A stretch of DNA of 64,000 bases. Source: a bacterium. GTDB lineage: Bacteria > Patescibacteriota > Minisyncoccia > Phycocordibacterales > UBA5272. The translations under genes were made by a program, and so were the position numbers. The stretch covers positions 11 through 64,010 of the forward strand of contig JAIXVU010000001.1 of assembly GCA_027482685.1 (NCBI GenBank). Reading direction: 5' to 3'. This document shows positions 7,591 through 31,454 of the stretch, piece after piece (position 1 is the first letter of the stretch; the number at the start of each line of letters is the position of its first letter). The notes beneath the pieces are model-generated. The model was not told the origin of the DNA. It did no database searches and worked only from the letters and a program-made list of their open reading frames with translations.

Positions 7591-7620
7591 CTCTCTAAAC
7601 CTCTAGCCACTATACCCTAG
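7591..7620 (+). repeat. CCCTAA/CCTCTAGCC leader motif upstream of mreB
   Basis: ctaaacctctagccactataccctag lies 30 nt 5' of the mreB ATG. Member of the recurring motif family. Confidence 0.5.
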
Positions 7621-7650
7621 TTACCACTGGTATGATAGAATGCGTTCTAC

Positions 7651-8664
7651 ATGGGATTTTTCTTCAAGAAACTCGGAATTGATTTAGGAACAGCAAACAC
7701 TCTTGTATATGTACCAGGGAAAGGTGTTGTACTTGTTGAGCCATCTGTTGTTGCGGTGTCACAATTTGATAACAAGATAATGGCCGTTGGAAGCGATGCA
7801 AAGGACATGATAGGGAAGACACCAGATTCTATCATTGCATATCGTCCTATGCGTGATGGTGTAATTGCTGACTATCGTGTTACAGAAGCGATGCTACGTT
7901 ACTATATTCATAAAGCACTTGGCGGGTTCGCGCTCTTTAAGCCTGATGTCATGGTATCAGTTCCAGCTGGGGTTACATCAACAGAAAGACGTGCAGTAAT
8001 CGAAGCTGCTCTTAAGGCTGGAGCTCGTAATGCATATGTTGTGAAGGAGCCAATCCTTGCAGCAATAGGTGCGGGGATCCCCATTCATGAGGCGCAAGGG
8101 CGTATGATAGTTGATATTGGAGGTGGGACCACAGACGTTGCGGTGATATCTCTTGGGGGTATCGTATGCAGTACATCAGTTAAGTGTGCAGGCAACAAAA
8201 TAGATCAAGCAATTATTGATTATGTTAAGAAGACCTATAATCTTGCAATAGGAGATCAAACTGCAGAAGAAATAAAGATACAAGTAGGAAGTGCATTGCC
8301 TGTAGAAGAAGAGCTTGTTATGAAAGTAAAAGGAAGAGACTTCATAGCAGGGCTTCCACGAACAGTAGAGATACGAACTAATGAAATTGTAAAAGCGATC
8401 GACAAGGAGTTGCGTGCGATGATAAAAGCAATCAAAGATGTTCTCCAAGAGACACCACCAGAGCTCGCTTCAGATATTATCGATAACGGTATCATCATGA
8501 GTGGTGGTTCATCAATGCTTAGACATTTCCCCGATCTCGTTCTACGTCGTACGGGGGTAAAGGCAGTCCTTGCTGACGATGCGTTCTTCTGTGTTGCAAA
8601 GGGGACTGGTGTTGCGCTTGAGCATCTAGACACGTACAAGCGCTCCATCTTCGCTAAGAAGTAA
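7651..8664 (+). CDS. mreB: Rod shape-determining protein MreB (actin-like), paralog 1
   Basis: GIDLGTANTLVY, DIGGGTTDVAV and actin-fold phosphate motifs. 337 aa. Confidence 0.9.
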   Translation: MGFFFKKLGIDLGTANTLVYVPGKGVVLVEPSVVAVSQFDNKIMAVGSDAKDMIGKTPDSIIAYRPMRDGVIADYRVTEAMLRYYIHKALGGFALFKPDVMVSVPAGVTSTERRAVIEAALKAGARNAYVVKEPILAAIGAGIPIHEAQGRMIVDIGGGTTDVAVISLGGIVCSTSVKCAGNKIDQAIIDYVKKTYNLAIGDQTAEEIKIQVGSALPVEEELVMKVKGRDFIAGLPRTVEIRTNEIVKAIDKELRAMIKAIKDVLQETPPELASDIIDNGIIMSGGSSMLRHFPDLVLRRTGVKAVLADDAFFCVAKGTGVALEHLDTYKRSIFAKK

Positions 8665-8947
8665 CTTGTCGAAAAATCACTGCATCTACTTCTTTGTAAA
8701 GATTTTTTTGCTCCTGTGATGTACAACTTGTACATCTTAGTCTCAAAAAATCTATACGCCTCGTATCTACAGCATTTTTTCAACAAGTGAGTGGGGGATA
8801 AAATGTGTAACTCTTTCGTTACGTTTGTTACTCGCTCGTCAATGTACAAGTAAGTACAACTCCTCGCCCGCTCCTTCCTGATTAAGATTTGCATCATTTT
8901 CTGCTCTCGTTAGAATTTACTACTAACTAGTTTGCTATACTGTTTCA

Positions 8948-9622
8948 ATGAAATCTGTCATCACATTCTCTGAGATTCCTCCACATCATGCTGTGCTTAT
9001 GGTGCATAAAGAGAGAGGCGCCGTGGGCGCCTCTCTCTTTGACGAATTAAAAGAGTTGTCTCCGGTTCATAGATTCTTTGACCAGTCAGTTCTAGATATT
9101 GAGACAGCGAGATATATATCGTCGTGGTCTAACACTCCATACAGTGGAGAAAAAGTTGGGCTTATTTCCTTCAATACAGCTGGACTTGAAGCACAGAATG
9201 CTCTCCTTAAAGTTTTAGAAGAGCCAAGAGCAGGTGTACGCTTCATCATTATTACAACACACAGAGAGCACCTCATCCCAACAGTCTTATCAAGGCTTCA
9301 TCAGATGAATCTTACACAAGATGTTCTTCATGATGAGATGTATACAAAAGCTTACACATTTCTCACAACTCCAAAAGTTAACAGAATGAATCTCAAAGAA
9401 GTAAAATTGCTTCTTGAAGAAGAAGATGAAGAGGGACGCAAGAAACGCGAGTCCGTCAAGAGTTTTATCCTCGCACTTACTGATGTTTTGAAAACTGAAA
9501 ACAGTGAATCAAGATATATTCTTGAAACGTTAGAGTTCGCTTCATATGCATCTCGTCCTTCAACATCAGGCAAAGCGCTCATTGAGTACCTTGCTCTTCT
9601 ATTGCTAGAGATTAGAAATTAA
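8948..9622 (+). CDS. holB: DNA polymerase III delta' subunit-like clamp-loader protein (short form)
   Basis: AQNALLKVLEEP sensor motif and IPTVLSR, with no Walker A, fit delta'. 224 aa. An alternative TTG start is possible near 9055. Confidence 0.7.
   Translation: MKSVITFSEIPPHHAVLMVHKERGAVGASLFDELKELSPVHRFFDQSVLDIETARYISSWSNTPYSGEKVGLISFNTAGLEAQNALLKVLEEPRAGVRFIIITTHREHLIPTVLSRLHQMNLTQDVLHDEMYTKAYTFLTTPKVNRMNLKEVKLLLEEEDEEGRKKRESVKSFILALTDVLKTENSESRYILETLEFASYASRPSTSGKALIEYLALLLLEIRN
9008..9040. repeat. Palindromic hairpin aaagagagaggcgcc-GTGG-ggcgcctctctcttt embedded in-frame in the holB 5' region
   Basis: Core agaggcgccgtRggcgcctct is identical to the intergenic hairpin at 284-322. Here it encodes KERGAVGASLF inside the holB ORF. 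Confidence 0.6.
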
Positions 9623-9663
9623 TGTACAATTTGTCTACTAATAAGGTATTAAATTTTGTATTT

Positions 9664-9693
9664 CCTAACCCCTAATCTCTATACCCTAACTAT
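9664..9693 (+). repeat. CCCTAA leader motif (cctaacccctaatctctataccctaactat) abutting the frr start codon
   Basis: Ends 1 nt before the frr ATG. No SD sequence is present. Confidence 0.55.
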
Positions 9694-10248
9694 ATGTCAT
9701 ACAACTTTACAGATATACATCAAAAGAAAGAGGCAATAATCGATTGGTTGCATGGAGAGTATCGTTCTATTTCAACGGGTCGTGCTACACCTCAAGTGCT
9801 AGATCTTGTACATATAGACATGTATGGGGCACGAACTGCTATAGCGCATGCTGCGAGTATTACAATAGAAGACCCTCGTACACTTCGTGTATCACCATGG
9901 GATAAGACAATTTTAAGCGGAATGGAAAAAGCTATTAATGATGCAGATCTCGGACTATCAGTTGCATCTGACGCTGAAGGGCTACGTGTGCATTTCCCAG
10001 CGCTCACCACAGAGACACGTCAGAAGCTTGTTAAGTTACTTAAGGACAGACTAGAAGATGCCCGTGTGAAAGTCCGTTCTATGCGTGAAGATGGTAACAA
10101 AGATATTGATGCCCGCGAAAAAGCAGGAGAGTATGGTGAAGATGATAAGCGTCGTTATAGAGATGAGATGCAAAAGATAGTAGATGAAGCTAACCAGACT
10201 CTTGAAAGTACTTTTGATAAAAAAGAAAAAGAAGTAATGGGGGAGTAG
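9694..10248 (+). CDS. frr: Ribosome recycling factor
   Basis: Full-length RRF signature (ISTGRATPQVLDLV...RVSPWDK...LRVHFPALTTETRQKLVK). Confidence 0.92.
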   Translation: MSYNFTDIHQKKEAIIDWLHGEYRSISTGRATPQVLDLVHIDMYGARTAIAHAASITIEDPRTLRVSPWDKTILSGMEKAINDADLGLSVASDAEGLRVHFPALTTETRQKLVKLLKDRLEDARVKVRSMREDGNKDIDAREKAGEYGEDDKRRYRDEMQKIVDEANQTLESTFDKKEKEVMGE

Positions 10249-10283
10249 AAGTAAGGAGTATACTATAACAAATAACTAAATTA

Positions 10284-10318
10284 GAAATGAGGGACACCTG
10301 CGGTGTCCCTCATTTCTA
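10284..10318 (+). terminator. Terminator agaaatgagggacacc-tgcg-ggtgtccctcatttct
   Basis: Perfect 16-bp stem after the frr stop. Confidence 0.7.
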
Positions 10319-10382
10319 ATTGTATGTATCGCATGAAATATCTTTGCTATGGTATACTTTTGACTATCAAATAACTTAATTT

Positions 10383-11495
10383 ATGTCGCTTACCACTATC
10401 TTATTGTTCCTTCTTATTATTGTTGTTCTGGTGCTTATTCATGAACTTGGGCATTTCTTAGCAGCGAAGTGGGTTGGGATGAGGGTGGATGAGTTTGCTT
10501 TTGGATTTCCTCCAAGACTTTTCAGTAAAAAAATTGGCGAGACAGTCTATGCGTTCAATGCGTTACCGCTTGGTGGGTATGTTGCTATTTGGGGTGAAAA
10601 TGGATCAGAAGATGATAACAAAGAAGATGGCGCAAAACATCACAAGAGAGCGTTTGGTAATCGTCCATGGTGGGCACAGTTATTTGTACTAGTTGCAGGT
10701 GTAACGATGAACATGTTACTTGCGCTTTTTATATTCATTATTATTTCATACGGTCCAGTAAATATTAGTACCACAGATGAGATATATGGTGATCGTGTAC
10801 GAAATGCACAAATGGTAATTGTCGACACGTTACCTAATAGCCCAGCTCTTAATGCAGGCTTGAAACCAGGAACAGTTATCACGAGTATGACAGCAGGTCG
10901 TCAGAAGGCTGACATGACAACTGCAACATCACTCGTACTCTTTATTAACCGTAACATTGATACACCGTTTGTTGTTACCTATAAGACGCCTAAGGGTGAA
11001 TACGCAAGTACGACAATTGCTGCGGTGTACGGAGTTGTCCCTCATGGTAAGAAGGCGCTCGGTATTGCAGTAGATACAATCGGCACTGTTGATATTGGTT
11101 TTTTTGAATCATTCACGCTTGGTGCTGAGAGAACATATCAGATGACACTCATGACTGTGTATGGCTTACGAGATGTGCTTGTCTCTTTAGGTAAAGGTGA
11201 GAATGTACTTCAATCACTTTCAGGTCCTGTGGGTATCGCACGTATTGTAGGGGAAACGAGTGAGTATGGAATGGATCCACTGCTTACTCTCGTTGCTGTG
11301 CTATCTATCAATCTTGCAATCTTTAATATTCTCCCGCTTCCGGCACTTGATGGTGGGCGTATGGTTATGGTGATTATTGAAACAATTACACGACGCAAGA
11401 TTCCGTTTAAGTATTACTCTTGGTTAAATGGTGTAGGATTCATAGCACTTCTCTTACTTCTCGTTGTTGTAACATTTAAAGATTTTACACAGTAG
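10383..11495 (+). CDS. rseP: RIP zinc metalloprotease RseP (site-2 protease)
   Basis: HELGHFLAAKWVGMRVDEFAFGFPPRL HExxH motif, a PDZ-like middle region and NILPLPALDGGRMV. Confidence 0.9.
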   Translation: MSLTTILLFLLIIVVLVLIHELGHFLAAKWVGMRVDEFAFGFPPRLFSKKIGETVYAFNALPLGGYVAIWGENGSEDDNKEDGAKHHKRAFGNRPWWAQLFVLVAGVTMNMLLALFIFIIISYGPVNISTTDEIYGDRVRNAQMVIVDTLPNSPALNAGLKPGTVITSMTAGRQKADMTTATSLVLFINRNIDTPFVVTYKTPKGEYASTTIAAVYGVVPHGKKALGIAVDTIGTVDIGFFESFTLGAERTYQMTLMTVYGLRDVLVSLGKGENVLQSLSGPVGIARIVGETSEYGMDPLLTLVAVLSINLAIFNILPLPALDGGRMVMVIIETITRRKIPFKYYSWLNGVGFIALLLLLVVVTFKDFTQ

Positions 11496-11519
11496 TACTT
11501 TCAAAGTACAATACTCTTC

Positions 11520-12800
11520 ATGCGACAATCACATCTTTACACTAAGACATTAAAAGAAGCCCCTTCAGATGAAGTATCCAAAAACGCGATACTACTTACA
11601 CGTGCAGGATATATTCATAAAGAAATGGCTGGAGTCTATACCATCATGCCACTTGGTCTACGAGTGCTTACGAAGATTGAGAATATCATTCGTCATCACA
11701 TGGATACCGTTGGTAATGAGCTTCTCATGCCTGCACTTTCTCCAACTGAGAGATGGGAGGCAACAGGGAGATTAGACAGCATCGATGTCCTCATGAAAAC
11801 TGCGCCAGCCAACAAGGCATCTGAGGAACGTTCGTCAGCGTCATACATTCTTAACCCGACACACGAGGATGTCATCACTCCTATTGTGAAAAACATTACG
11901 AGGTCATACAAAGACCTACCTGTTGCGATGTATCAGATACAAAGTAAGTTTAGAAATGAAGCCCGTGCAAAGTCAGGCCTCCTACGCGAACGCGAGTTTC
12001 GTATGAAGGATCTCTACAGCTTCCATGTATCACAAGATGACTTAATGAGATTTTATGAAGAGATGAAGAGCGTATATGCAAATGTATTTCGTGATATCGG
12101 TATTGGCAAAGAGACATTTATCACTGTTGCTTCAGGTGGAGATTTCACTCCGAATTTTTCACATGAGTTCCAGACTCTTACAGATGCAGGAGAGGATGTT
12201 GTGTATCTAGATAGAAAGAATGGTATTGCATATAACAAAGAAGTAGTTACAGAGGAGAACGCGAAGAAGCTCGGTGTTGATTTTGGAACACTTGAGCAAG
12301 TAAAAGCATGTGAAGTTGGAAACATATTTCCACTCGATACTCGTTTTAGTTCTGCACTTGATTATACTTACATCGATGATAAGGGTGAAAAACAGTTAGT
12401 ATACATGGGTAGCTATGGCATCGGACCTACACGCCTTATGGGTGTAGTTACAGAGGTGTTTGCAGATGATAAGGGTCTCGTATGGCCAGCGTCTATTGCA
12501 CCATTTTCGCTACATTTGATTGTCCTTGCAAAAGAAAAAGATGCAGATAGTTACAAGCAAGCAGAAGAGTTATACAAGAAGCTAACCGAGAAAGGTGTTG
12601 AAGTATTATTTGATGATCGTATGGTAGGCGCAGGCGAGAAATTCGCTGATAGTGATCTCATTGGTATTCCGATGCGAGTGGTAGTTAGTGATAAGTCGTT
12701 ACTTGCAGGTGGTGTTGAGATAAAAGAACGCACGAGTGAGAAAAGTGAAGTAGTAACTATTGATGAACTTCTAAAAACCTACACAGGAAATTGTGAGTAG
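11520..12800 (+). CDS. proS: Prolyl-tRNA synthetase (class II, short form without editing domain)
   Basis: ProRS N-terminus LTRAGYIHKEMAGVYTIMPLGLRVLTKIENIIR, class II motifs and a C-terminal anticodon-binding domain. 426 aa. Confidence 0.85.
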   Translation: MRQSHLYTKTLKEAPSDEVSKNAILLTRAGYIHKEMAGVYTIMPLGLRVLTKIENIIRHHMDTVGNELLMPALSPTERWEATGRLDSIDVLMKTAPANKASEERSSASYILNPTHEDVITPIVKNITRSYKDLPVAMYQIQSKFRNEARAKSGLLREREFRMKDLYSFHVSQDDLMRFYEEMKSVYANVFRDIGIGKETFITVASGGDFTPNFSHEFQTLTDAGEDVVYLDRKNGIAYNKEVVTEENAKKLGVDFGTLEQVKACEVGNIFPLDTRFSSALDYTYIDDKGEKQLVYMGSYGIGPTRLMGVVTEVFADDKGLVWPASIAPFSLHLIVLAKEKDADSYKQAEELYKKLTEKGVEVLFDDRMVGAGEKFADSDLIGIPMRVVVSDKSLLAGGVEIKERTSEKSEVVTIDELLKTYTGNCE

Positions 12801-12915
12801 GGGTGTAGATAGTAAATAGCAAAAAGTAGAGTAGATGGTGAGATGTGCAGAGGGCGCCTTACGGTACCCTCTGTTTACGTATTGCTATAAATCAATTGAC
12901 GCTATATAAAAACGA

Positions 12916-12937
12916 ACCCGCGCCGTAGGCGCGGGTC
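12916..12937. terminator. Bidirectional terminator acccgcgcc-GTAG-gcgcgggt
   Basis: GC hairpin with GTAG loop between the convergent proS (+) and 12954..13352 (-) genes. Confidence 0.7.
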
Positions 12938-12953
12938 ACGAAGCGCGAAGGCT

Positions 12954-13352
12954 TCAGACAGGTGAAGGTGTCCGTGTGAACATCTTCTTCTCTTCTTCGG
13001 TCACATCTCCGGGGATCTCGAACTCGTTATCGATCCTCTTGATACGGCCATCACACAGGCCGTCAACGTAGTCGAGGAGCTTCATCTCTTCCGACGTCTG
13101 ATCAGCAATGATCAGTCCGTAGAGGGCAGTTGAGTAGCTGAAGCTTAGCCCCCCGTTGCGTTCTTTTTCTCGATACGAAATCTTGTCGTGATTGATTCCG
13201 TCGAGTAGCAGCTTCTTGGCGAGTTCGTCACGTTGTTTCAGAACCTCGTCGAGACGGCGGCTAAGTATGTTCATTTGTTTGCTGTGACGCTTTTTGTTTT
13301 TCTTGAACGTGTATCGCCAAATCATGATGATGCCGATGTAGACGATGTGCAT
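12954..13352 (-). CDS. Hypothetical protein (132 aa), GC-rich with SD
   Basis: About 50% GC. AGGAG sits 6 nt before the ATG. No recognisable domain. Flanked by AT-rich core genes. Confidence 0.5.
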   Translation of the reverse strand: MHIVYIGIIMIWRYTFKKNKKRHSKQMNILSRRLDEVLKQRDELAKKLLLDGINHDKISYREKERNGGLSFSYSTALYGLIIADQTSEEMKLLDYVDGLCDGRIKRIDNEFEIPGDVTEEEKKMFTRTPSPV

Positions 13353-13469
13353 TGGTACTCCTGGTTTGGATGTGGTAATTGGGACAGCTTATTATATTAT
13401 ACTACATTTATAAAATAAGTCAAGTAAAGCTGAAAATTAAAATCATGATAGAATGAGTCAATACTATCT

Positions 13470-14519
13470 ATGTTTAGCAGTCTCTATCATCGCTTTTCAA
13501 ATGACATCGGAATTGACCTAGGTACTGCAAACACCCTTGTATATCTTGGTGGTAGAGGTATCGTTATCAACGAGCCATCGGTTGTTGCGCTTAACACAAA
13601 GACTAACCGAGTGGTTGCGGTAGGAATGGAAGCAAAGAATATGATGGGTCGCACGCCACAGCATATACGCATTGTTAGACCACTTGTTGACGGAGTGATA
13701 TCTGATTATGAAGTTACAGAAGAGATGCTCAGCTATCTTATCAACAAAGCAAATGAGATAGATAAGAAATTATTCCGCCCACGTGTTGTTATCGGCATAC
13801 CGGTGGGTATCACTAATGTGGAGATGCGCGCTGTGTATGATGCCGCTATATCAGCAGGTGCGCGTGAGGTCTACATCGTAGAAGAACCAATGGCGGCAGC
13901 TATAGGTGTGAGACTTCCAATACATGAACCAGTAGGCAGTATGATGGTGGACATTGGTGGCGGCACAACAGATATTGCAGTTATTGCGCTCTCTGGAGTA
14001 GTGCGCGCAAAGAGCTTAAAAGTTGCAGGCGATAAACTAACAGAAGATATCATCACCTATATGCGTGATGAGTTCAAGATGTTAATAGGAGAAAAGACAG
14101 GTGAGCATATCAAGATGACGATAGGGTCAGCACTCCCAGATGAACATGGTGAAGAGATGAGTATCAAGGGACGAGATCTTGTTACAGGGCTACCACGTGA
14201 AGCAATAATTACTGATGTTGATATCCGTCAAGCAATGTATAGCTCTATCTCCCAGTTAGTTGATGTTATTCGTGAAGTACTTGAGACTACACCACCTGAA
14301 GTACTCTCTGATATCATGCAACGCGGTATAGTAGTTTCAGGTGGTGGGGCGCTTATTCGTAACTTGCCTAAACTACTTGAAATGCAACTTAAAGTTCCAG
14401 TTACTGTATCTGATGATCCATTAACAGCAGTTGCTCGCGGAACAGGAGTTATACTAGAGCATATTGATGAGTACAAAGACGTGCTAATCAAAAATACAGA
14501 TGACATATCTTTCCGATAA
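13470..14519 (+). CDS. mreB: Rod shape-determining protein MreB, paralog 2
   Basis: GIDLGTANTLVY and DIGGGTTDIAVI. 349 aa. Followed by mreC and PBP2. Confidence 0.9.
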   Translation: MFSSLYHRFSNDIGIDLGTANTLVYLGGRGIVINEPSVVALNTKTNRVVAVGMEAKNMMGRTPQHIRIVRPLVDGVISDYEVTEEMLSYLINKANEIDKKLFRPRVVIGIPVGITNVEMRAVYDAAISAGAREVYIVEEPMAAAIGVRLPIHEPVGSMMVDIGGGTTDIAVIALSGVVRAKSLKVAGDKLTEDIITYMRDEFKMLIGEKTGEHIKMTIGSALPDEHGEEMSIKGRDLVTGLPREAIITDVDIRQAMYSSISQLVDVIREVLETTPPEVLSDIMQRGIVVSGGGALIRNLPKLLEMQLKVPVTVSDDPLTAVARGTGVILEHIDEYKDVLIKNTDDISFR

Positions 14520-15303: not shown

Positions 15304-15307
15304 TTCT

Positions 15308-18740: not shown

Positions 18741-18769
18741 GGGTAGTCAATAGTTTATGGTTAATAGTA

Positions 18770-18800
18770 GAACACGCGCGACCGAAGGTCGCGCGTGTTC
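18770..18800 (+). terminator. Terminator gaacacgcgcgacc-GAAG-gtcgcgcgtgttc
   Basis: Perfect 14-bp stem after greA. Related to the hairpin at 20843. Confidence 0.7.
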
Positions 18801-18923
18801 TGTATTTAACTAATTACAAATTACTAATAACTAATTACTTGTGCTTCCATATCGACTAAACTTCTCCAATTTGTTACTATACTGTATATCAACACGCATC
18901 TCAACTATTAACATTAACTATCC

Positions 18924-20531: not shown

Positions 20532-20840
20532 ATGATGCCAACTATCACAGTTCGGCTTGGAAGTACTCAAGATGTAACTACTTGCGAAGTTAGTGAAAAT
20601 GAACTTAAAGTGCTTAATTGTATAGGCGACAAAGAACTTACTCCGCTTCAGATTAGCAGGTTGATAAGTTATAAGGAAATCGAAAAGTCTAAACTTTATT
20701 CCATATTAGCAAAACTTCTTGCTAAAGGTCTCTTACAAAAAAAGCAAAAGTTTGTTCAAGAAGGTACCGCTTTGAAGAAAGCGGTATGTTATAAGAGAGC
20801 CTTTACTTTTGTTATTTTGATGATGGAAACAAAAGTGTAA
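20532..20840 (+). CDS. Small hypothetical protein, possible winged-helix DNA-binding (about 102 aa)
   Basis: LKVLNCIGDKELTPLQISRL...LYSILAKLLAKGLL resembles a MarR/wHTH recognition helix. GGAGGT SD overlaps the alternative ATGs. Confidence 0.4.
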   Translation: MMPTITVRLGSTQDVTTCEVSENELKVLNCIGDKELTPLQISRLISYKEIEKSKLYSILAKLLAKGLLQKKQKFVQEGTALKKAVCYKRAFTFVILMMETKV

Positions 20841-20842
20841 AG

Positions 20843-20874
20843 TAAGCGCGACCGAAGGTCGCGCTTGTTTTTGT
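20843..20874 (+). terminator. Terminator aagcgcgacc-GAAG-gtcgcgctt plus T-run
   Basis: GC hairpin followed by tgtttttg. Confidence 0.7.
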
Positions 20875-20883
20875 ATCAACCAT

Positions 20884-20910
20884 TCCCTAATCCCTAACCT
20901 CTAGACCCTA
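20884..20910 (+). repeat. CCCTAA leader motif (ccctaatccctaacctctagaccctag)
   Basis: Lies between the terminator and the mraZ promoter. Confidence 0.5.
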
Positions 20911-20957
20911 GTTCTGGATATCCACACTTTTTTCTAGGTATTTAGGTAGAAAGTGGA

Positions 20958-20987
20958 GTATAATGGGTGCTAGTGGGGGGAAGTGGG
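20958..20987 (+). promoter_or_regulatory. mraZ promoter -10 (TATAAT) followed by three MraZ boxes TGGGT-N5-TGGGG-N5-TGGGA
   Basis: gagTATAATggg. TGGGT (20963-67), gctag, TGGGG (20973-77), ggaag, TGGGA (20983-87). This is the canonical MraZ operator architecture upstream of mraZ. Confidence 0.75.
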
Positions 20988-21135
20988 AGCTTCCAAAAAA
21001 GTTTTTAATTTTGCGAATTGCATAGAGGTTCCTCACTTTATCATCGTGGTGTACTTACCAGAGGCGTCACAAATAGAGGTGTCCTATGCATTTCGTTATA
21101 ATTAAAAACTTTTACCACACAATTTTTTAACAAAC

Positions 21136-21570: not shown

Positions 21571-21588
21571 TTGTATTTGCATCTGAAT

Positions 21589-21630
21589 TTCCTAGACCCT
21601 AGATCTTAATCCCTAACAATCTAACCTCAA
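21589..21630 (+). repeat. CCCTAA leader motif (cctagaccctagatcttaatccctaacaatctaacctcaag) abutting rsmH start
   Basis: Ends 3 nt before the rsmH ATG. Confidence 0.5.
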
Positions 21631-21633
21631 GTT

Positions 21634-22542: not shown

Positions 22543-22555
22543 AACGTTCATAAGT

Positions 22556-24620: not shown

Positions 24621-24639
24621 TTCTTGTGCACTAGACAAA

Positions 24640-24917: not shown

Positions 24918-24942
24918 CCTACAATGCTATACTATTGCAATC

Positions 24943-26373
24943 ATGGTTAACCCTGTACGTGTACAAAAAATCACCGAAAAAGATTACAGTAATGGCACTG
25001 TTATCTACGAGATGTGTCGCGAGCTACGCGCGCATGATAATGACGCACTGCTTTTCGCTCAGGATCTTGCAAAAAGTAATGGGTGTAAGCTTGTAGTGCA
25101 CTACCGTATCTATAACTATCTTTGGCAAGGTGCAACCGCACGCTTTTACGACTGGGTCATAGCATCTCTTAAAGAAGTTGAAGCAACACTCCGTGTGCAT
25201 GCTATCCCTCTTGTGATTATCTTCGAAGATAACAAGTTGTACGCACGTGATACTAAGATATCTCATATACCTCATGATACTGGCGCAGTAGTGATAGAAG
25301 AGATACCGCTACACTTTGCTCGCAAGTGGAAAGATATCTATCTCGCTCATCACAATACTATTCCACTCTATGAAGTCGATGCGCGTAACTGTATTCCAGT
25401 ATGGGAGTTGTCACATAAGCAGGAATTTGCAGCTCGTACAATCCGCTCAAAAGTACACGCGAAGTTAGGAGGGTACCTAGAAGAATATGACAAACTTACC
25501 ACACATACCGCAAATGCTGATCTGCTCACAAAGATGCAACCGATAGATTGGAATGATATTCGCAAAAAGATTATATGTGATGAATCCGTAGCTGAAGTTG
25601 ATTGGATACATGCAGGTGAGAAGGCCGCTCATAAGCAACTCACTCACTTCCTTTCAGAAAAGTTACAAGAGTATGATGAGTCTCGCAATAGTATCAACAT
25701 TGATGGTCAGAGTAACCTCTCACCATACATATCTCATGGCAATATTTCACGTCGACGTATTGTACTAGAGTTACTTAGGACAACTGGGGTGGAGATTCGT
25801 AGTGCGTTTGATCCAGTACAGAATGGCTCAAACGGGAAGTTGGGTAGTATCGCAGCATTTATCGAAGAGTGCGTAGTGCGAGCAGAACTCTGTGAAAACT
25901 TTTGTTACTACAACCACGCGTATGATAAGGTCACAGGCTTTCCAGCGTGGGCAAAGGAGACGCTTGACGCTCATAAACATGACGCGCGAGAGTATACGTA
26001 TACATATAAGCAATTAGAAAAAGGAGAAACTCACGACAGGTTATGGAACGCTGCACAGTTACAAATGGTGCAGACTGGTAAGATGCATGGGTACATGCGT
26101 ATGTACTGGGCAAAGAAAATACTAGAGTGGACCAAGTCCCCAGAGGATGCTATGAAGTTCGCAGTGAAGCTAAACGATACCTATGAGCTAGATGGACGAG
26201 ACGTTGGCGGGTATGTTGGATGTGCATGGTCAATAGGTGGCGTGCATGATAGGCCGTGGTTCACGCGTCCGATATTCGGTACTATTCGCTACATGGCAGT
26301 AAGTGGCGTTGAGAAACGTGGTAGTATAGAAGAATATATAACGAAGTTCGCTTCTCCTCCAAAACTTGTATGA
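24943..26373 (+). CDS. phr: Deoxyribodipyrimidine photolyase, class II CPD photolyase
   Basis: Class II photolyase C-terminal FAD-binding signature GYMRMYWAKKILEWT...GGYVGCAWSIGGVHDRPW...IRYM. Confidence 0.85.
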   Translation: MVNPVRVQKITEKDYSNGTVIYEMCRELRAHDNDALLFAQDLAKSNGCKLVVHYRIYNYLWQGATARFYDWVIASLKEVEATLRVHAIPLVIIFEDNKLYARDTKISHIPHDTGAVVIEEIPLHFARKWKDIYLAHHNTIPLYEVDARNCIPVWELSHKQEFAARTIRSKVHAKLGGYLEEYDKLTTHTANADLLTKMQPIDWNDIRKKIICDESVAEVDWIHAGEKAAHKQLTHFLSEKLQEYDESRNSINIDGQSNLSPYISHGNISRRRIVLELLRTTGVEIRSAFDPVQNGSNGKLGSIAAFIEECVVRAELCENFCYYNHAYDKVTGFPAWAKETLDAHKHDAREYTYTYKQLEKGETHDRLWNAAQLQMVQTGKMHGYMRMYWAKKILEWTKSPEDAMKFAVKLNDTYELDGRDVGGYVGCAWSIGGVHDRPWFTRPIFGTIRYMAVSGVEKRGSIEEYITKFASPPKLV

Positions 26374-27344
26374 AAAAATCAAACAATAGTTTCCCGAAAA
26401 AAGTAAGTACAAACAAAGCCACGAAACCATTTGCAGATAAAGCACCAAGGACAACAGTCATGAATTATGATTCTCCTCGAAAGATAGACAAAAGATTAAA
26501 CTTTAAAAATCCTGATAGATTAGCTGATATAGAATCTCGTCCGAAGCCGATGAGTAAGAGTAAGCATAAGCCAGTAGTAGATACATCATGGGGAACAGTT
26601 GCATCATGGTACGACAGTCATCTAGAAAAGAGTGATGATACCTATCATGCAAAAGTTATCTTCCCGAATCTTCTACGACTACTTGATGATGTTAAAGGTA
26701 AGAAGATTTTAGACCTTGCATGTGGGCAGGGGGTGTTTACTCGTGAGCTACATAGTAAGGGGGCGCTTGTAACAGGTACAGACATCGCAAAGGAACTCCT
26801 TACAATTGCAGAAGAGAAGGGTAAAGCATCAAAAGTCATCCCTAAGATAACCTACATACGAACAAGTGCAGATGATCTTTATATGTTGAAAGACAACACA
26901 TTTGATATTGTCATCTGTATTCTCGCACTTCAAAACATCGAGAACATGCAAAAGACAGTGAAGGAAGCATCTCGAGTGCTCACAACAGGAGGGCGATTTA
27001 TCTTCGTACTTAATCATCCGTCGTTCCGCAATCCTCGTCAGTCCGCATGGGGCTACGATGAGCATACGAGCATGCAGTACAGACGAGTGGACGAGTACAT
27101 GTCAGAGTCTCATGTGAAGATAGACATGACACCAGGGAGTAAAGCCGACAAGAAGTTCACTGTGTCATTCCACCGACCTCTTCAGGTATATGTAAAAGCA
27201 CTTTCAAAAGCAGGCTTTACTATTACTCACCTTGAAGAGTGGATTAGTCACCGTACAAGTGAAAAGGGGCCGAAGCAGCGCGCGGAGGATAGGGCTAGGA
27301 AAGAGATTCCATTATTCATGTGCCTCGAATCTAAAAAAGTATAA
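26370..27344 (+). CDS. Class I SAM-dependent methyltransferase with basic N-terminal extension
   Basis: ILDLACGQGVFTRELHSKGALVTGTDI (motif I) and DIVICILALQN. Overlaps the photolyase stop (ATGA). Confidence 0.75.
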   Translation: MKKSNNSFPKKVSTNKATKPFADKAPRTTVMNYDSPRKIDKRLNFKNPDRLADIESRPKPMSKSKHKPVVDTSWGTVASWYDSHLEKSDDTYHAKVIFPNLLRLLDDVKGKKILDLACGQGVFTRELHSKGALVTGTDIAKELLTIAEEKGKASKVIPKITYIRTSADDLYMLKDNTFDIVICILALQNIENMQKTVKEASRVLTTGGRFIFVLNHPSFRNPRQSAWGYDEHTSMQYRRVDEYMSESHVKIDMTPGSKADKKFTVSFHRPLQVYVKALSKAGFTITHLEEWISHRTSEKGPKQRAEDRARKEIPLFMCLESKKV

Positions 27345-27384
27345 AACTTCCGTACTTGGCGACCTTTTTTGTAGAAATTTCTAA

Positions 27385-27415
27385 TTCATTCGTCAATGTA
27401 GGTTCACTACACCTC
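27385..27415 (+). repeat. Diverged copy of the 3'-UTR repeat element (tcaatgtaggttcactacacctcctcat)
   Basis: Shares the tgtag-gttNa-ctaca hairpin with the copies at 32557 and 37972. Located 40 nt after the methyltransferase stop. Confidence 0.4.
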
Positions 27416-27578
27416 CTCATGAATTTTCGTTTCCCCTCAAATCTCTTCCAGGTATGAAAGTTTTAGTAATGTGTGGTGAACTTCCTTGAATTTCATCTAA
27501 TTTCTAAACTTTTCAATTCCAGTTTATTTATAATTCTCGCGAAAATAATTCTATGCTACACTAGAAAAATATAAAAAT

Positions 27579-28238
27579 ATGAAAAAGTTATCACATTTCT
27601 TAAAAACACCTCAAGGTAAAATTATTAGCGGAATCGTCGGTATTATCGTGCTTCTCTTTGCATACTATTTTTACGCAATGAGTAAAGTAGAAGCTACCCC
27701 AACATCCACCGAAATAACCATCTCAGAAAAAGACCATGTCCGTGGCAAAGGGGGAGCAAAGGTAACTATTGTTGAGTTCGCAGACTTCCAGTGCCCAGCA
27801 TGTCGCGCGTATGAACCGCTTGTTCGTAAAGTAGTTGAGGATAACAAAGACACAGTACAGCTCGTGTTCCGTAACTTCCCACTTACTCAGATCCACCCTA
27901 ACGCTCTCTTAGCTGCAAAGGCAGCTGAGGCTGCTGGTGTACAAGGTAAGTTCTGGGAGATGCATGATGTGCTCTATGACAAGCAAGATGAATGGTCATC
28001 AGCGCTTAACGCTCGTGACAAGTTCATGGTCTATGCAACGACTCTTGGTCTTGATATGACTAAGTTCGCTCAGGATCTTAACAGTAAGGAGATAGAAGAT
28101 AAGATACGTGCTGAGATGAAGGAAGGCGTAGCTCTCGGGGTGCAAGGCACACCATCATTCTTCGTTAATGGTAAGAAGATAGAGAACCCTCGTTCAGTAG
28201 AAGCATTCGATAAAATTGTAAAAGACGCTGCTGAATAG
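27579..28238 (+). CDS. Thiol:disulfide oxidoreductase, DsbA/BdbD-like thioredoxin fold, membrane anchored
   Basis: N-terminal TM and the CPAC active site in FADFQCPACRAYEP. Confidence 0.8.
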   Translation: MKKLSHFLKTPQGKIISGIVGIIVLLFAYYFYAMSKVEATPTSTEITISEKDHVRGKGGAKVTIVEFADFQCPACRAYEPLVRKVVEDNKDTVQLVFRNFPLTQIHPNALLAAKAAEAAGVQGKFWEMHDVLYDKQDEWSSALNARDKFMVYATTLGLDMTKFAQDLNSKEIEDKIRAEMKEGVALGVQGTPSFFVNGKKIENPRSVEAFDKIVKDAAE

Positions 28239-28243
28239 TTAGC

Positions 28244-28270
28244 GCTAACCCCTAACCTCTAGCCCCTAAC
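28244..28270 (+). repeat. CCCTAA leader motif (ctaacccctaacctctagcccctaaca) abutting the start codon
   Basis: Ends 2 nt before the ATG at 28273. Confidence 0.55.
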
Positions 28271-28272
28271 AT

Positions 28273-28500
28273 ATGATAAAAGAATTCCTCCTCAAACAAG
28301 CAGTCAAACGTGGCGCAAAAGATCTTCCAAAAGAACAACAGGAAATGCTCACCAAAGCGGTAGAACAGAACCCAGAGCTTTTCAGTAAGATTGCAAAAGA
28401 AATCGAAGCCTTGAAGAAATCCGGTAAGCCAGAGATGTACGCAGCACTTGATGTGATGAAGAAGTATCAGAAGGAACTTTCGGTACTTTTTAAGCAGTAA
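28273..28500 (+). CDS. Hypothetical small protein (75 aa, helical, Lys/Glu-rich)
   Basis: Host-like codon usage. Preceded by the leader motif. Confidence 0.45.
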   Translation: MIKEFLLKQAVKRGAKDLPKEQQEMLTKAVEQNPELFSKIAKEIEALKKSGKPEMYAALDVMKKYQKELSVLFKQ

Positions 28501-28503
28501 TTA

Positions 28504-28902
28504 ATGAATCCTAATTTTTCTGGTGCGCCATCTCAAAATATACAAAAACCGACTGACATTGAAAGAGAACCATATCTTGATTTAATAAATGATTTTGGTG
28601 TATTTATTAGCCTTAATGCCGTAGCACTTGATACACAAATTATTCCAGGTAAAGAAAAAGAATTATTGGAATTGCGTCAAGTATTAAGAAAGCCTGTCAT
28701 TAACGGCCAAACATTCACTGAGTTTCTTTCTAATAACCATCAAAGTCTGACGAAACCACAAGTTGCGGAGGCTCTTATTTCACAAATTTACAACTTTTTG
28801 TTGTATATAGAGCCAGGACTATCAATATTCACAACAGATGCTGCTTGGCCTAAAAGATTCAATGTTATTAAAGAAAAGTATAGTAAATTAGTACGTGCAT
28901 AA
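28504..28902 (+). CDS. Hypothetical protein (132 aa)
   Basis: ORF immediately follows 28273..28500. No motif recognised. Confidence 0.45.
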   Translation: MNPNFSGAPSQNIQKPTDIEREPYLDLINDFGVFISLNAVALDTQIIPGKEKELLELRQVLRKPVINGQTFTEFLSNNHQSLTKPQVAEALISQIYNFLLYIEPGLSIFTTDAAWPKRFNVIKEKYSKLVRA

Positions 28903-28981
28903 TTTTGGGATATTTGTGGTTGAGTCTACATATTAAATAGACACTTTAGCAGCAGTCTAACTATTTTCTCTGGTATACTGC

Positions 28982-29713
28982 TTGCATATGGATAGACATC
29001 CCGAAATTATCGAGACGACACCAACGATTGGCAACGTGCAAGAACTCCCTCAGGATGTTCCAACACTTCAGGCTGAGGTATTGCGCCTACGAGAGGAAGT
29101 GAGACGTTTACAAGAAGAGGCACTCACAGATAGTCTCACAGGGTTACCTAACAGACGTTACGCTGACCAAGAGATAAAAACTCTTTTCGCCCAAAGAGGG
29201 AGAAATGAGATAGACTCATTCAGTGTTATTGCATTTGATCTAGATGGTTTCAAGGCGATCAATGACAAAGGTGGACACCTCGCAGGGGATGAATGTCTCA
29301 AGATTGTCGCAGAGGAGATCCGGAATACATTACGAACTACCGACTTCTTCGCACGCGAAGGAGGGGATGAGTTTCTTATTTTCCTACGTAACGAGCCACA
29401 TGCAACAACAGTTGCTGAGAATGTGCTCAAGAGAATGAATGACAACGTAACCACAAGGTTACGCGAGTATACAAAGGACGAAACGTCCTGGATATCAGCA
29501 AGTATTGGTCTTGTAACGATAGCAGATGATAGTAGCTTGCGAGGTATCACATCATCAAAGGATGTGCTTACTCAGGCAGACTATGTGAGGTATGTGGTAA
29601 AGGCAGCTGGTAAAAAAGGAGTCTTCACCCTCGAGCAAGCCCGCGAGGTAGACACAGACGGCAGATACTGGAAGCAATTTGTGGAGAATAAAATAGGGAA
29701 GGTCTCAGTGTAA
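28982..29713 (+). CDS. Diguanylate cyclase (GGDEF domain) with N-terminal coiled coil
   Basis: LTGLPNRRY, DLDGFKAINDKGGHLAGDECL and the canonical active site REGGDEFL. Confidence 0.85.
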   Translation: MHMDRHPEIIETTPTIGNVQELPQDVPTLQAEVLRLREEVRRLQEEALTDSLTGLPNRRYADQEIKTLFAQRGRNEIDSFSVIAFDLDGFKAINDKGGHLAGDECLKIVAEEIRNTLRTTDFFAREGGDEFLIFLRNEPHATTVAENVLKRMNDNVTTRLREYTKDETSWISASIGLVTIADDSSLRGITSSKDVLTQADYVRYVVKAAGKKGVFTLEQAREVDTDGRYWKQFVENKIGKVSV

Positions 29714-29810
29714 GTACTATTTAGCAAAAGTGGTTTAAATAGATGTCTATTTTATCTCAACAAAGTTGCAATGTAGTTTGCTGGTAAATATCATTGGATA
29801 AAAAAGAACA

Positions 29811-29840
29811 CACCCCGAACAGCGTCGGGGGTGGGGTGGA
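29811..29840. terminator. GC-rich hairpin (ccccgaac-agcg-tcgggg core) between convergent genes
   Basis: Located between the GGDEF stop and the 3' end of the 29856 ORF. Confidence 0.45.
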
Positions 29841-29855
29841 CCTTGGTGCGATGTG

Positions 29856-30198
29856 TCAGTCATCACTTAGGATATGAAATGAGTGACATGACCTCGCGAT
29901 GAAGGGGATCTCACCCTTTAGTTGTGCGAGCTTACTCTCGGCAACATCGCGTTGCTTGTAGCAGGCGACAACCTGAAGTTCGCCTCGTAGCATCGCAGTT
30001 ACAATAGCGCACTCGAGATCTCGCATCGTGATATCGAGTATCCTCGCAACACGCTCAGCGTGTATGGTGAGGAAGATTATCCTTTCATTTCTGAAGCAAC
30101 GACATACAAAGAGTGCTATACGGACTTCAGGTGGCTCTTTTTGTTGTTCTCTGATATCTGAGGCGGGCCTATGCACCTTATCTGGAGTAGCATACATC
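29856..30198 (-). CDS. Hypothetical protein (about 114 aa), GC-rich with SD
   Basis: ATG chosen at MYATPDK, preceded by GGGAGAAG; the longer ORF starts on TTG. Transcribed divergently from the RhuM-Fic gene. Confidence 0.45.
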
Positions 30199-30309
30199 AG
30201 ATCTTCTCCCGTAATGTAATGAGCAATGCACAAATACTACAACGATTATTGCCCCATCGTCAACTATAGCGGGCAAGGGTATTATTACTTTATCCACAAA
30301 ATATTGAGG

Positions 30310-30338
30310 TTGTTCTATTGATGTAGAACACTTGTTCT
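30310..30338. promoter_or_regulatory. Palindromic operator candidate TGTTCTA-N5-TAGAACActtGTTCTA (GAAC-N4-GTTC, Cheo-box-like)
   Basis: GTAGAACACTTGTTCTAC is a perfect 8+8 inverted repeat 15 nt upstream of the RhuM-Fic ATG. The core matches the Gram-positive LexA box GAAC-N4-GTTC. Confidence 0.5.
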
Positions 30339-30352
30339 ACTAGACTATATAT

Positions 30353-31369
30353 ATGGCAAAGAAAAAACAAACATCAAAAACAACTACAATTTTTAATAAC
30401 AACGTCATTGTCTATCAGACAAAGTCAGGAGCACTCGAGCTAAAGGGTGATTATACAGGTGAGACAGTGTGGGCAACACAGGCGCAGATAGCAGAGGTGT
30501 TTGGTATAGAACGATCCGTTATAACTAAGCACATTAGAAATATTTATAAAGAAGATGAATTAAATGAGAAAGCAACATGTGCAAAAATTGCACAAGTTCA
30601 AATTGAAGGAAAACGTAGAGTTGAACGTGAAGTAGAGCACTATAATCTTGATCTTATTATTTCCGTTGGTTATCGAGTTAATTCAAAGACAGCCACCTCC
30701 TTTCGTCAGTGGGCGACAAGGACGCTTCGTGAACATTTAACTAAAGGGTATACACTGAATAAGAAAGTTATCCTCGAGAACTACGATCAATTTATTAAAA
30801 ATGTGTCCGAAATACAAGCGCTACTTCCGGAGCATGTGACGCTTGACCCAAAGGGAATACTTGATCTAGTAAAAGAATATGCAACAACATGGTCCAAGCT
30901 TGATGCGTATGATAAAGATGAGCTCACCTCAGAAGGTGTCACAAAGAAGAAAATTAAAATTAATGCAGATGAGCTTTCTACTACTGTAGAAACATTCAAA
31001 ACAGAACTTATAAAAAAAGGTGAAGCTACAGAAATTTTCGCACAAGAACGAGCCTCTGGAAATCTAGAAGGTATATTAGGGAATGTGATGCAGTCATTTG
31101 GTGGTTCTGATGTGTATAAGACACTGGAAGAAAAGGCGGCACACCTTCTCTATTTTATGGTGAAGAATCATCCATTTGTAGATGGGAATAAACGCTCAGG
31201 AGCTTTTACTTTTATCTGGTTCTTGAGAAAATCAGGAGTTCGTGGAGCTAAGAACATCAATCCATCCGGACTGACCGCTATTACACTTCTCATTGCAGAA
31301 AGTGACCCAAAGCATAAAGAAAAGGTAGTTGCCCTTGTTGTAGAACTTCTCAAAACAAAAGTGAAATAA
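30353..31369 (+). CDS. RhuM-family N-terminal domain fused to Fic/Doc (death-on-curing-like) domain
   Basis: RhuM signature VWATQAQIAEVFGIERSVITKHIRNIY...YNLDLIISVGYRVNSKTATSFRQWATRTLREH. C-terminal Doc-type motif HPFVDGNKRSGAF. Confidence 0.75.
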   Translation: MAKKKQTSKTTTIFNNNVIVYQTKSGALELKGDYTGETVWATQAQIAEVFGIERSVITKHIRNIYKEDELNEKATCAKIAQVQIEGKRRVEREVEHYNLDLIISVGYRVNSKTATSFRQWATRTLREHLTKGYTLNKKVILENYDQFIKNVSEIQALLPEHVTLDPKGILDLVKEYATTWSKLDAYDKDELTSEGVTKKKIKINADELSTTVETFKTELIKKGEATEIFAQERASGNLEGILGNVMQSFGGSDVYKTLEEKAAHLLYFMVKNHPFVDGNKRSGAFTFIWFLRKSGVRGAKNINPSGLTAITLLIAESDPKHKEKVVALVVELLKTKVK

Positions 31370-31419
31370 TATCTCGTCTATGTTAGAATGCAATGCATTA
31401 AGTATTTATCTAATTAACC

Positions 31420-31454
31420 AGCCCCTAGTCCCTAAACCCTAACCTCTAGCCCTT
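31420..31454 (+). repeat. CCCTAA leader motif (gcccctagtccctaaaccctaacctctagccctt) abutting ychF start
   Basis: Ends at the nucleotide before the ychF ATG. Confidence 0.55.

Follow-up and report, generated by a model that had tools for sequence, protein, structure and literature searches.

Tandem repeats with a unit of seven nucleotides have been reported from the intergenic DNA of bacteria for decades, and to our knowledge no function has been demonstrated for them. Cyanobacterial heptanucleotides of the STRR type, such as CCCCAGT, were reportedly described by Mazel et al. in 1990. Here we analyze a motif of the form CCCTAA/CCTCTAG in a 64-kb stretch of contig JAIXVU010000001.1 (assembly GCA_027482685.1), which is the part of the host genome covered and is called the window below; the host is a bacterium of the Candidate Phyla Radiation (CPR), Paceibacterota lineage, and its genome is likely small. 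Where homologs of its Frr protein bear a source name, that name is Candidatus Pacebacteria/Paceibacterota. An earlier note on this DNA had described the motif as a leader element lying directly 5' of start codons, in the place of a Shine-Dalgarno (SD) sequence, and had offered three readings of it: a lineage-specific initiation element, a promoter module, or a dispersed repeat inserting preferentially at gene starts.

Rehm et al. 2015 described the G-rich heptamers GGGAATC in Xanthomonas and GGGGA(C/T)T in Nostoc PCC 7120, which show a non-coding bias and a preference for four units; the length and sequence of such GGGNATC repeats differ among close relatives, no association with mobile elements was found, and their function was left unresolved (PMC4692102). 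MacGregor 2015 found 169 sets of the heptamer TAACTGA in a Beggiatoaceae genome, mostly in forward orientation and stopping about 1 nt short of start codons devoid of an SD; the heptamers also occur in some Cyanobacteria and Bacteroidetes, horizontal transfer has been suggested for them, and S1, Csp or CsrA-like binders have been proposed, with a role in translation that was put forward and not demonstrated (PMC4679880). Earlier work, as cited in that paper, has CspB binding as one protein per heptamer. According to a preprint on Nostoc, heptamer repeats near promoters or start codons affect the expression of recF and recO (10.1101/2022.06.06.494920). Heptanucleotides were found by Mrazek et al. 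2007 to be the most abundant class of long simple repeats, polymerase slippage being suggested as their origin (as cited in PMC4692102 and PMC4679880).

The motif is an array of seven-nucleotide units

The recurrence of the motif is real: all the copies named in the earlier note are present, and CCCTAACCTCTAGCCCCTAA has five matches with up to three mismatches in the window (2250 on the minus strand; 9670, 20892, 28250 and 31437 on the plus strand), when the expectation, taken from 100 shuffles, is 0.01. What recurs is a period-7 tandem array and not a fixed 20-mer. The element consists of three to five tandem 7-nt units of the form (C/T)C(C/T)CTA(A/G)N, i.e. YCYCTAR-N, and the pattern CTA-N4-CTA-N4-CTA matches 15 times in eight arrays when 0.8 matches are expected, whereas the triple CTA set at any of the periods 3-6 or 8-12 is found between 0 and 2 times. 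Five of the CCCTAA-type copies align in a single register with 66-100% identity (family D2 in a repeat search of the window), and Tandem Repeats Finder reports period 7 at 28245-28270, 18809-18839 (ACTAATT) and 38581-38616 (TATTAAC). The coordinates of the arrays are given in Table 1; one of them, the minus-strand copy at 7470-7501, had been overlooked.

The position of the copies before start codons is only partly as had been thought. Four of the eight CCCTAA-type arrays abut an ATG and the rest lie elsewhere; ends within 3 nt of the ATG are reached by degenerate units (about -1 to -3), whereas the intact CCCTAA/CCTCTAG units stop 4 nt (frr), 17 nt (rsmH), 3 nt (orf28273) and 5 nt (ychF) away. 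CTA starts at -7 relative to the ATG of orf28273, at -8/-4 for frr, at -9 for ychF and at -13 for rsmH.

Table 1. Heptad arrays, inverted array pairs and promoter-like start sites in the window (positions of the window unless a relative, L number, is named), with the arrays found at the same sites in relatives.
Feature	Positions	Strand	Units or content	Setting	Same site in relatives
CCCTAA-type array	2248-2276	-	TTCCTAA TCTCTAA CCCCTAA CT (minus strand)		
CCCTAA-type array	7470-7501	-	CTAGCCC CTATCCC CTAAAAC CTATACA CTAG		
CCCTAA-type array	7588-7621	+		upstream of mreB promoter	L008 TTACTGC x5; L010 mixed TTACTGC-like; L004 TTTCTAT
CCCTAA-type array	9660-9693	+		3' part of predicted frr leader, reaching ATG 9694	L008 TAACGAT x4; L010 TTACTAC/TAACTAC x4; no array in L004, L006
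CCCTAA-type array	20882-20912	+		between terminator-like hairpin and conserved mraZ promoter region	
CCCTAA-type array, degenerate	21586-21633	+		fills mraZ-rsmH intercistronic spacer	L135 TTCTACN x5, end 1 nt before ATG; L145 TACAAGC/TAAATGC
CCCTAA-type array	28239-28272	+	CCCTAAC	whole 34-nt spacer between DsbA-like stop (28238) and orf28273 ATG (28273)	L132 CCTAACC/ACTAACC; L133 CTAATNA; no array in L136, L145
CCCTAA-type array, five units	31417-31454	+	CCCTAAN x5	predicted ychF leader, reaching ATG 31455	L132 AACTATT x4
Heptad array, same element class	38574-38627	+	TTAACTA x5	directly upstream of TATACT and ATG 38631	
Heptad array	18805-18843	+	ACTAATT x4.4	just 3' of greA terminator hairpin	
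Heptad array, weak	12801-12832	-	TATCTAC TATTTAC ...	1 nt after stop of prolyl-tRNA synthetase-like gene 11520-12800	
Inverted array pair	2244-2350				
Inverted array pair	18744-18826				
Inverted array pair	7485-7501/7603-7619				
Inverted array pair	L132 7288-7445				
Example genes for the start-codon context (SD-free; in many genes TGnTAnnnT ending 6-10 nt before ATG)	8948, 15429, 44803 (minus strand), 48690, 52773, 57100, 57855, 59383				

Turnover at orthologous sites

Syntenic loci of relatives were collected by way of Frr (L004, L006, L008 and L010; 76-83% protein identity) and of RsmH (L132, L133, L135, L136 and L145; 61-67%), and genes in these and in the cross-phylum loci described below were called by a longest-ORF rule. 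In 234 kb from ten genomes of the lineage there are 43 period-7 segments, 36 of which are intergenic; periods 4, 5, 8, 10 and 11 yield 2-6 segments each and periods 6, 9 and 12 yield 8-14, which are coding. Seven is thus the sole enriched period among those that are not multiples of three. The arrays are intergenic and occupy short spacers between genes throughout the lineage, and their unit differs among loci and among related genomes.

When the frr leaders of L006, L008 and L010 are aligned, the promoter GTGTTAGAATTGCAGGTAC and the start of the gene are conserved, and L006 has a clean gap of 32-33 nt exactly where L008 and L010 have their arrays, which are about 64% identical to each other by eye. 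Orthologs of frr therefore occur with or without an array behind the same promoter, and with a unit free to change, so that the arrays are compatible with expression and not required for it. At ychF, the window and L132 have in common the extended -10 box TGTTAGAAT (31381-31389 in the window, on the 5' side of the array) together with some 15 nt of leader, after which each has an array of its own that reaches the ATG. The array of the mraZ-rsmH spacer is absent in four other relatives, whose spacers are 4-16 nt long or AT-rich. Absence in close relatives had been named beforehand as the mark of a neutral repeat; such absence is found for the CCCTAA sequence, and not for period-7 arrays as a class.

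Within near-identical strains no such turnover is seen. The window is identical to L001-L003, and L006 and L007 align without gaps at 99.0% identity over 12 kb, including the array at L006 12108-12149; in this small sample of strain pairs at 99-100% identity no change of copy number was found in any array, unlike in phase-variable (contingency) repeats, whose copy number differs between closely related strains. The proteins encoded at the ends of the window led, when looked up, to contigs contained in it and to none reaching beyond.

Orientation and composition of the units

Intergenic arrays were oriented by their G-poor strand. Nine arrays that end 0-4 nt before a start codon have the G-poor strand sense and none has the G-rich strand sense; a tenth, in L135, ends 1 nt before the mraZ ATG and was labelled stop-adjacent by the ORF caller. 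Among arrays that begin between -14 and +12 nt from a stop codon the preference is reversed, with eight G-rich-sense against two G-poor-sense cases. The rule is thus G-poor strand sense beside starts and G-rich strand sense beside stops. A stop-side array in G-rich sense is often followed by a terminator hairpin and then, beyond the hairpin, by a G-poor array, and inverted array pairs surround terminator hairpins or segments of about 100 nt (Table 1).

Two of these pairs have their arms 86-105 nt apart: window 7485-7501/7603-7619, between divergent genes, and L132 7288-7326/7413-7445, around a terminator hairpin; one arm of the latter has an identical copy 2.1 kb away, at L132 5135-5165.

We compiled 31 consensus units and read them on the G-poor strand. 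None contains ATG, GTG or TTG, when 3.3 would be expected to. A stop codon is present in 20 of the 31 on this strand (10.7 expected) and in 30 on the complement (18.9 expected), and, as seven is not a multiple of three, a run of three units that each contain one stop puts stops in all the frames. CTA occurs in 24 of the 31 units against 6.4 expected. Units are also more alike within a genome than between genomes, with mean distances of 2.33 and 2.63 respectively (permutation p = 0.009).

Taken together, these data place the motif among the intergenic heptanucleotide repeats, and we regard its membership in that class as well supported: the units stand head to tail and are over-represented relative both to chance and to other unit lengths, the arrays are non-coding, lie near ORF boundaries and follow a strand rule (9 to 0 beside starts, 8 to 2 beside stops), and length and sequence vary at the same intergenic site among relatives (frr, rsmH, ychF, orf28273 and mreB).

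Occurrence beyond the lineage

A scan for the pattern CCTAAYCTCTADNCCCTA in a set with one genome for each species, 596 Gb in all, gave at least 120 loci, with 123 matches listed; about 400 matches would be expected by chance in that amount of sequence by our own estimate, so the raw number of matches is no evidence of anything. The context of the matches is more telling, since 108 of the 123 listed belong to runs of 4-24 phased units, most often 4-5. About 50 of the listed matches are from Bacteroidota, 22 from Cyanobacteria, 11 from Planctomycetota, 9 from Acidobacteriota, 7 from Proteobacteria, 6 from Firmicutes and 4 from Gemmatimonadota, with none from Actinobacteria and no Paceibacterota locus among them; as the order of the scan is undefined, these proportions are indicative only. 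Several of the phyla with CCCTAAY/CTCTAAY arrays make little use of SD sequences.

The placement of the listed matches is reminiscent of that in the lineage. An ORF boundary lies no more than 50 nt from the C-rich 3' side in 64 cases (29 sense starts and 35 antisense ends) and from the opposite side in 29, and many of the listed arrays lie 0-15 nt before an ATG or form inverted pairs. Those of L066, L072, L102 and L105 run right up to the ATG. In the loci L012-L131 the CCCTAAY/CTCTAAY arrays often adjoin other heptads, such as TCAACTT (L105), TCATTAC (L117), ATGTCCA (L114) and AAAGTGA (L068).

A scan of viral contigs gave 29 matches, of which about 20 are one conserved phage locus and just a few are true arrays. 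The contigs of that locus (about 20, among L151-L179) share the sequence ...TTTATCATTTTGCTCCCTAATCTCTAAACCCTAAATGGATTTAGG..., in which the pattern stands once within an imperfect inverted repeat and there is no heptad array.

Start-codon context of the host

The observation that the genes with the motif lack an SD was correct, but the lack is not peculiar to them. An SD-like 4-mer (GGAG, GAGG or AGGA at -18 to -5) precedes 5 of the 66 genes of the window, which is the rate at random positions (8%); the lack of SD is therefore a property of the genome. It also holds, as had been argued, that the C-rich motif does not pair with the canonical anti-SD CCUCC.

Promoter-like signals are frequent near the starts. 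A TAnnnT hexamer ends 4-12 nt before the start codon in 28 of the 66 genes, compared with 19% at random, with a peak at 6-9 nt, and the longer TGnTAnnnT stands within 100 nt upstream of 32 genes (about 0.17 per 100 nt expected), ten times at 6-10 nt from the ATG. Given signals so close to the ATG, transcripts are predicted to begin at or beside it, which implies that leaderless or near-leaderless mRNAs would be a major mode of expression in this host. A generic -35/-10 scan showed no enrichment over shuffles in the window (51 against 54.8 and 43 against 50.6) and was useful solely for the frr and ychF sites.

Since transcription starts are predicted ones, the status of the arrays as leaders is likewise a prediction from sequence. 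The predicted folding energy of the region from -35 to +20 is -2.5 kcal/mol for seven genes with arrays, -5.4 for other genes and -7.9 for random windows.

Passive spacers or functional sites

We lean slightly toward the reading that the arrays of the CCCTAA/CCTCTAG motif, a local version of the intergenic heptanucleotide simple-sequence repeats, serve as inert, G-poor spacers and leaders and do not substitute for an SD. The arrays would arise and stay uniform by slipped-strand replication or gene conversion, and only those forms that do no harm to expression would persist. A G-poor array used as leader or spacer would offer no ATG, GTG or TTG and no SD-like purine run, would have almost no secondary structure and would usually carry stops in all three frames. 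It could thus act as a passive, unstructured and untranslatable spacer in a genome free of SD in which many mRNAs begin at the ATG or close to it, and initiation at the first AUG, independent of an SD, would remain possible from such a leader. The arrays would act through these bulk properties, by neither base-pairing with rRNA nor promoter function.

A number of observations weigh against this interpretation. Eight arrays of the window share the CCCTAA unit and five share the order of the units, and the greater likeness of units within genomes is not predicted by purely local slippage; what it suggests is dispersal, gene conversion or a trans factor that co-evolves. The excess of the CTA core is a constraint on sequence beyond base composition, and arrays of the CCCTAAY/CTCTAAY unit are found again in Bacteroidota, Cyanobacteria, Planctomycetota and Acidobacteriota. 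Copy number is constant in strains of 99-100% identity, unlike that of hypermutable repeats; the preference for G-rich sense after stops is left unexplained by an argument about leaders; and the contrast in folding energy is based on just seven array genes. The points that are not neutral, i.e. the within-genome likeness, the CTA core, the cross-phylum unit, the constant copy number and the stop-side preference, keep alive the models of a trans factor and of dispersal.

Replacement of the SD by a lineage-specific initiation element, the first of the three readings proposed earlier, is rejected as far as a sequence-specific element is meant: the unit is not conserved at orthologous sites, the spacing between CTA and ATG is variable, half of the copies lie away from starts, and SD sequences are absent from the whole region and not from the motif genes in particular. 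A weaker form of it can be kept. An array that abuts an ATG must belong to the leader or intercistronic RNA, and such arrays are always G-poor, which is at least compatible with SD-independent initiation.

The strongest competitor, possible if doubtful, is that the arrays are bound by a trans-acting factor whose footprint is 7 nt (S1, a protein with a cold-shock domain or some other binder of single strands) and whose specificity drifts between genomes, and which would load ribosomes onto SD-less, leadered genes or regulate their translation. It would account for units that are alike within a genome and divergent between genomes, for the CTA core, for the strict orientation of arrays that end 0-4 nt before the ATG, and for sites that keep the period in relatives while the sequence changes; the same proposal was made for TAACTGA, with CspB cited as binding one protein per heptamer in the earlier work mentioned there (PMC4679880). 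On the other hand, the unrelated units CCCTAAC, TTAACTA and ACTAATT coexist in the window, half of the arrays are outside leaders (upstream of promoters, after terminators, or reversed after stops), and an ortholog of an essential gene can do without an array, as frr does in L006. No protein with the motif of the cold-shock domain was found in the sampled regions, which are a fraction of each genome and hence uninformative on this point.

An unlikely extension to other phyla would turn heptad arrays into a cis element that is widespread among SD-poor bacteria (CPR, Bacteroidota, Cyanobacteria and Planctomycetota), tolerant of sequence change and dependent on the 7-nt period. G-poor heptads would be read by a conserved 7-nt single-strand binder, with oligonucleotide-binding (OB) folds of the S1 or cold-shock type, or by the ribosome itself, loading onto or trimming to the first AUG of leadered or internal cistrons, and G-rich arrays on the stop side, as the complements of these leaders, would mask them on read-through transcripts.

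Among the three readings offered beforehand, the dispersed repeat, taken as one that prefers gene boundaries, comes closest to the evidence. That the arrays are copies of a dispersed element, spread by mobility in the manner of miniature inverted-repeat transposable elements (MITEs) or by templated repeat addition, is nonetheless quite unlikely. Under this explanation the arrays would be found at gene boundaries because elsewhere their stop-bearing units would break ORFs; it fits the five copies in one register at 66-100% identity, the inverted pairs that flank segments of about 100 nt or hairpins (window 7485-7501/7603-7619 and 2244-2350, L132 7288-7445), the occurrence of the same unit in many phyla and the horizontal transfer suggested for TAACTGA (PMC4679880). 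Yet target-site duplications, conserved internal sequence and a transposase were not found, the sequences inside the inverted pairs are unrelated from pair to pair, the arrays of orthologous sites have the look of descendants that diverged (L008 and L010 at frr, about 64%) rather than of independent insertions, and repeats of this type show no association with mobile elements (PMC4692102). As a MITE or mobile repeat proper the element was set aside, with unrelated cores, no duplications and no differences of presence or absence between strain pairs.

It is very unlikely that the arrays act as non-B DNA, the G-rich strand folding into a G-quadruplex (G4) and the C-rich one into an i-motif, and in this way modulate transcription, a role put forward for GGGNATC. 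Read on the complementary strand, the motif is (T)TAGGG(G), the telomeric G4-forming repeat, arrays mostly have 4-5 units (among the cross-phylum matches listed), and the ychF array has four GGG tracts; alternate units, however, read GAG and not GGG, and the arrays of the lineage built from TTAACTA, ACTAATT, TAACGAT, TTACTGC or TTCTACN have no G-tracts on either strand. The canonical G4 motif (four runs of G3+ with loops of 1-7) does not occur in the window, where the ychF array alone qualifies if loops of up to 12 are allowed. As a general explanation G4 formation fails for these reasons, i.e. no canonical motif in the window and sister arrays devoid of G-tracts.

That the motif is a promoter module from which leaderless or short-leader transcripts start, TAACCT being the -10 hexamer, is highly improbable; at rsmH and ychF a weak promoter role is conceivable. 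TAACCT fits TAnnnT and stands 6 nt (rsmH) and 9 nt (ychF) before the ATG, at the 6-9 nt spacing peak of other genes, and a good -10 box lies within or beside some arrays of other units, as at the prolyl-tRNA synthetase-like gene of L006 (TATACT, 7 nt before the ATG) and at window 38631. The TG extension of TGnTAnnnT is absent from the arrays, however; frr and orf28273 have no TAnnnT at leaderless spacing; the promoters of frr and ychF lie upstream of the array and are conserved in relatives, whose replacement arrays (AACTATT, TAACGAT) have no TAnnnT; and copies after stops or terminators cannot serve the flanking genes as promoters. That the motif serves as an alternative SD by pairing with a non-canonical part of 16S rRNA is scarcely credible: CCCCUA is complementary to the conserved UAGGGG of helix 45 (E. 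coli sequence) and several copies adjoin an ATG, but the unit changes between orthologous sites, CTA and ATG are anywhere from 2 to 13 nt apart and helix 45 is a stable, buried hairpin.

Arrays of this class are worth noting in a CPR host with a genome that is probably very small, in which intergenic DNA should be scarce and neutral filler costly. The related genomes offer natural pairs in which frr stands behind the same promoter without (L006) or with (L008, L010) a heptad leader. If the arrays do support SD-independent initiation, they bear on the translation of internal or leadered genes in SD-poor bacteria; should they be neutral, they call for caution in taking repeats at gene starts for regulatory motifs.

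Settings of the individual arrays

Gene identities were confirmed with Pfam for mreB, a DNA polymerase III delta'-like gene, mraZ, rsmH, ychF, alaS, a class II (D/K/N) aminoacyl-tRNA synthetase, dnaK, a DsbA-like gene, greA, fmt and a cyclophilin; the assignment of frr (RRF) was made separately. The array at 2248-2276 starts at the stop codon of the cyclophilin (PPIase) gene (1518-2249, + strand), with its G-rich strand sense, and a perfect hairpin with a 30-bp stem lies 3' of it, at 2269-2331. The array at 7470-7501 is upstream of the minus-strand gene 5592-7463 and overlaps the -10-like TACACT of that gene; it pairs as an inverted repeat with 7603-7619 (88% over 17 nt). In front of mreB (ATG 7651) the array is 30 nt upstream of the start, with the -10 box TGaTAGAAT (7633-7641) in between, and a promoter-like TTGCTA-17-TACAAT, which ends at 9630, is found upstream of the frr array.

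The array of the mraZ region is 225 nt upstream of the mraZ ATG and has no start codon beside it. The terminator-like hairpin that precedes it, at about 20848-20866, is an inverted repeat of GCGCGACC and GGTCGCGC followed by a T-rich run; it was recognized by eye and is absent from the list of the terminator scan. The rsmH array has its TAACCT 6 nt before the ATG (21634) and its final units are degenerate; the array of orf28273, a conserved ORF of 75 aa, holds the sole exact match to CCCTAACCTCTAGCCCCTAA. The array at 18805-18843 has a partner of opposite orientation at 18744-18771, across the greA hairpin, and that at 12801-12832 has its G-rich strand sense for the prolyl-tRNA synthetase-like gene. 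The alaS leader (36040-36073) is CTA-rich and G-poor, yet its period of seven is not clean, and it was left out of the array count.

The terminators at 18767-18827 and 20837-20897 contain an identical 19-nt hairpin, GCGCGACCGAAGGTCGCGC, and are followed by heptad arrays of different units. Many other hairpins of the window have CGTAGG or GAAGG loops.

Other features of the window

The mraZ promoter region (20918-20989) is conserved in L132, L133, L135, L136 and L145. It begins with a DnaA-box-like (T/A)TATCCACA at 20918-20926, followed by GTGGAG-TATAAT (TATAAT at 20959-20964), and the AGTGGGG and AAGTGGGAG repeats after this TATAAT resemble MraZ operator boxes.

A longer dispersed repeat, of 66 to about 110 nt and 70-92% identity, is present at 32543-32608, 32703-32768 and 37958-38023; it begins right at the ychF and alaS stop codons or shortly past them, contains two small conserved hairpins and has possible weaker relatives near 27390 and 8840. 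No match to Rfam was found for it, and an E-value search of 32500-38300 returned nothing credible. The gene directly upstream of ychF (30353-31369) has RhuM-family, Fic/DOC and, weakly, phage pRha domains, and may be of mobile or phage origin. At the gathering threshold Rfam found no rRNA gene in the whole window and only a truncated tRNA at 1-63 (minus strand, 49.7 bits), which is cut by the window edge; ARAGORN called no tRNA or tmRNA in the window, the tRNA at 1-63 being missed because it is truncated. In the loci collected from relatives, too, no rRNA gene was seen.

Comparison with known repeat systems

Contiguous 7-bp units are also the operators of omega, a ribbon-helix-helix protein of plasmid pSM19035, which binds them upstream of promoters. 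The arrays described here resemble them in having contiguous units of this length upstream of promoters; the omega heptads differ in being of one sequence (WATCACW), in both orientations per operator, and in belonging to a plasmid system of partition and regulation, and no omega-like protein or conserved unit was identified here. As an SD would, four copies occupy the last 5-15 nt before a start codon, but they have no complementarity to the anti-SD, are variable in spacing, are not conserved across orthologs and also occur away from starts. The STRR heptamers are said to share with our arrays the intergenic tandem arrangement, a C-rich/G-rich composition and dispersal over the chromosome; they reportedly occur in heterocystous cyanobacteria, often in much longer arrays, and no start-codon rule is known for them.

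The TAACTGA system is similar in its 2-6 tandem heptamers, which contain stops in all frames when forward, and in the use of the same unit genome-wide (PMC4679880). Its unit is different, however, and a single one dominates there with 169 sets, whereas several families of units coexist here, together with an additional class of stop-adjacent arrays in the opposite orientation.

The GGGNATC type differs in its unit, which in the window is GGG(G)TTA/GAGGTTA (CCCTAAC/CCTCTAG on the other strand), and in its capacity for G4, since most arrays of the window have no canonical G4 capacity and the sister arrays have no G-tracts. The hosts differ as well, ours being a CPR bacterium with a likely small genome, free of SD and seemingly largely leaderless. 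In placement the two are much alike: in the 50 bp upstream of an ORF the G-rich strand is the antisense one, in the 50 bp past a stop it is the sense one, inverted pairs occur occasionally, there is no tie to particular gene functions, and length and sequence vary markedly at the same intergenic site of close relatives (PMC4692102).

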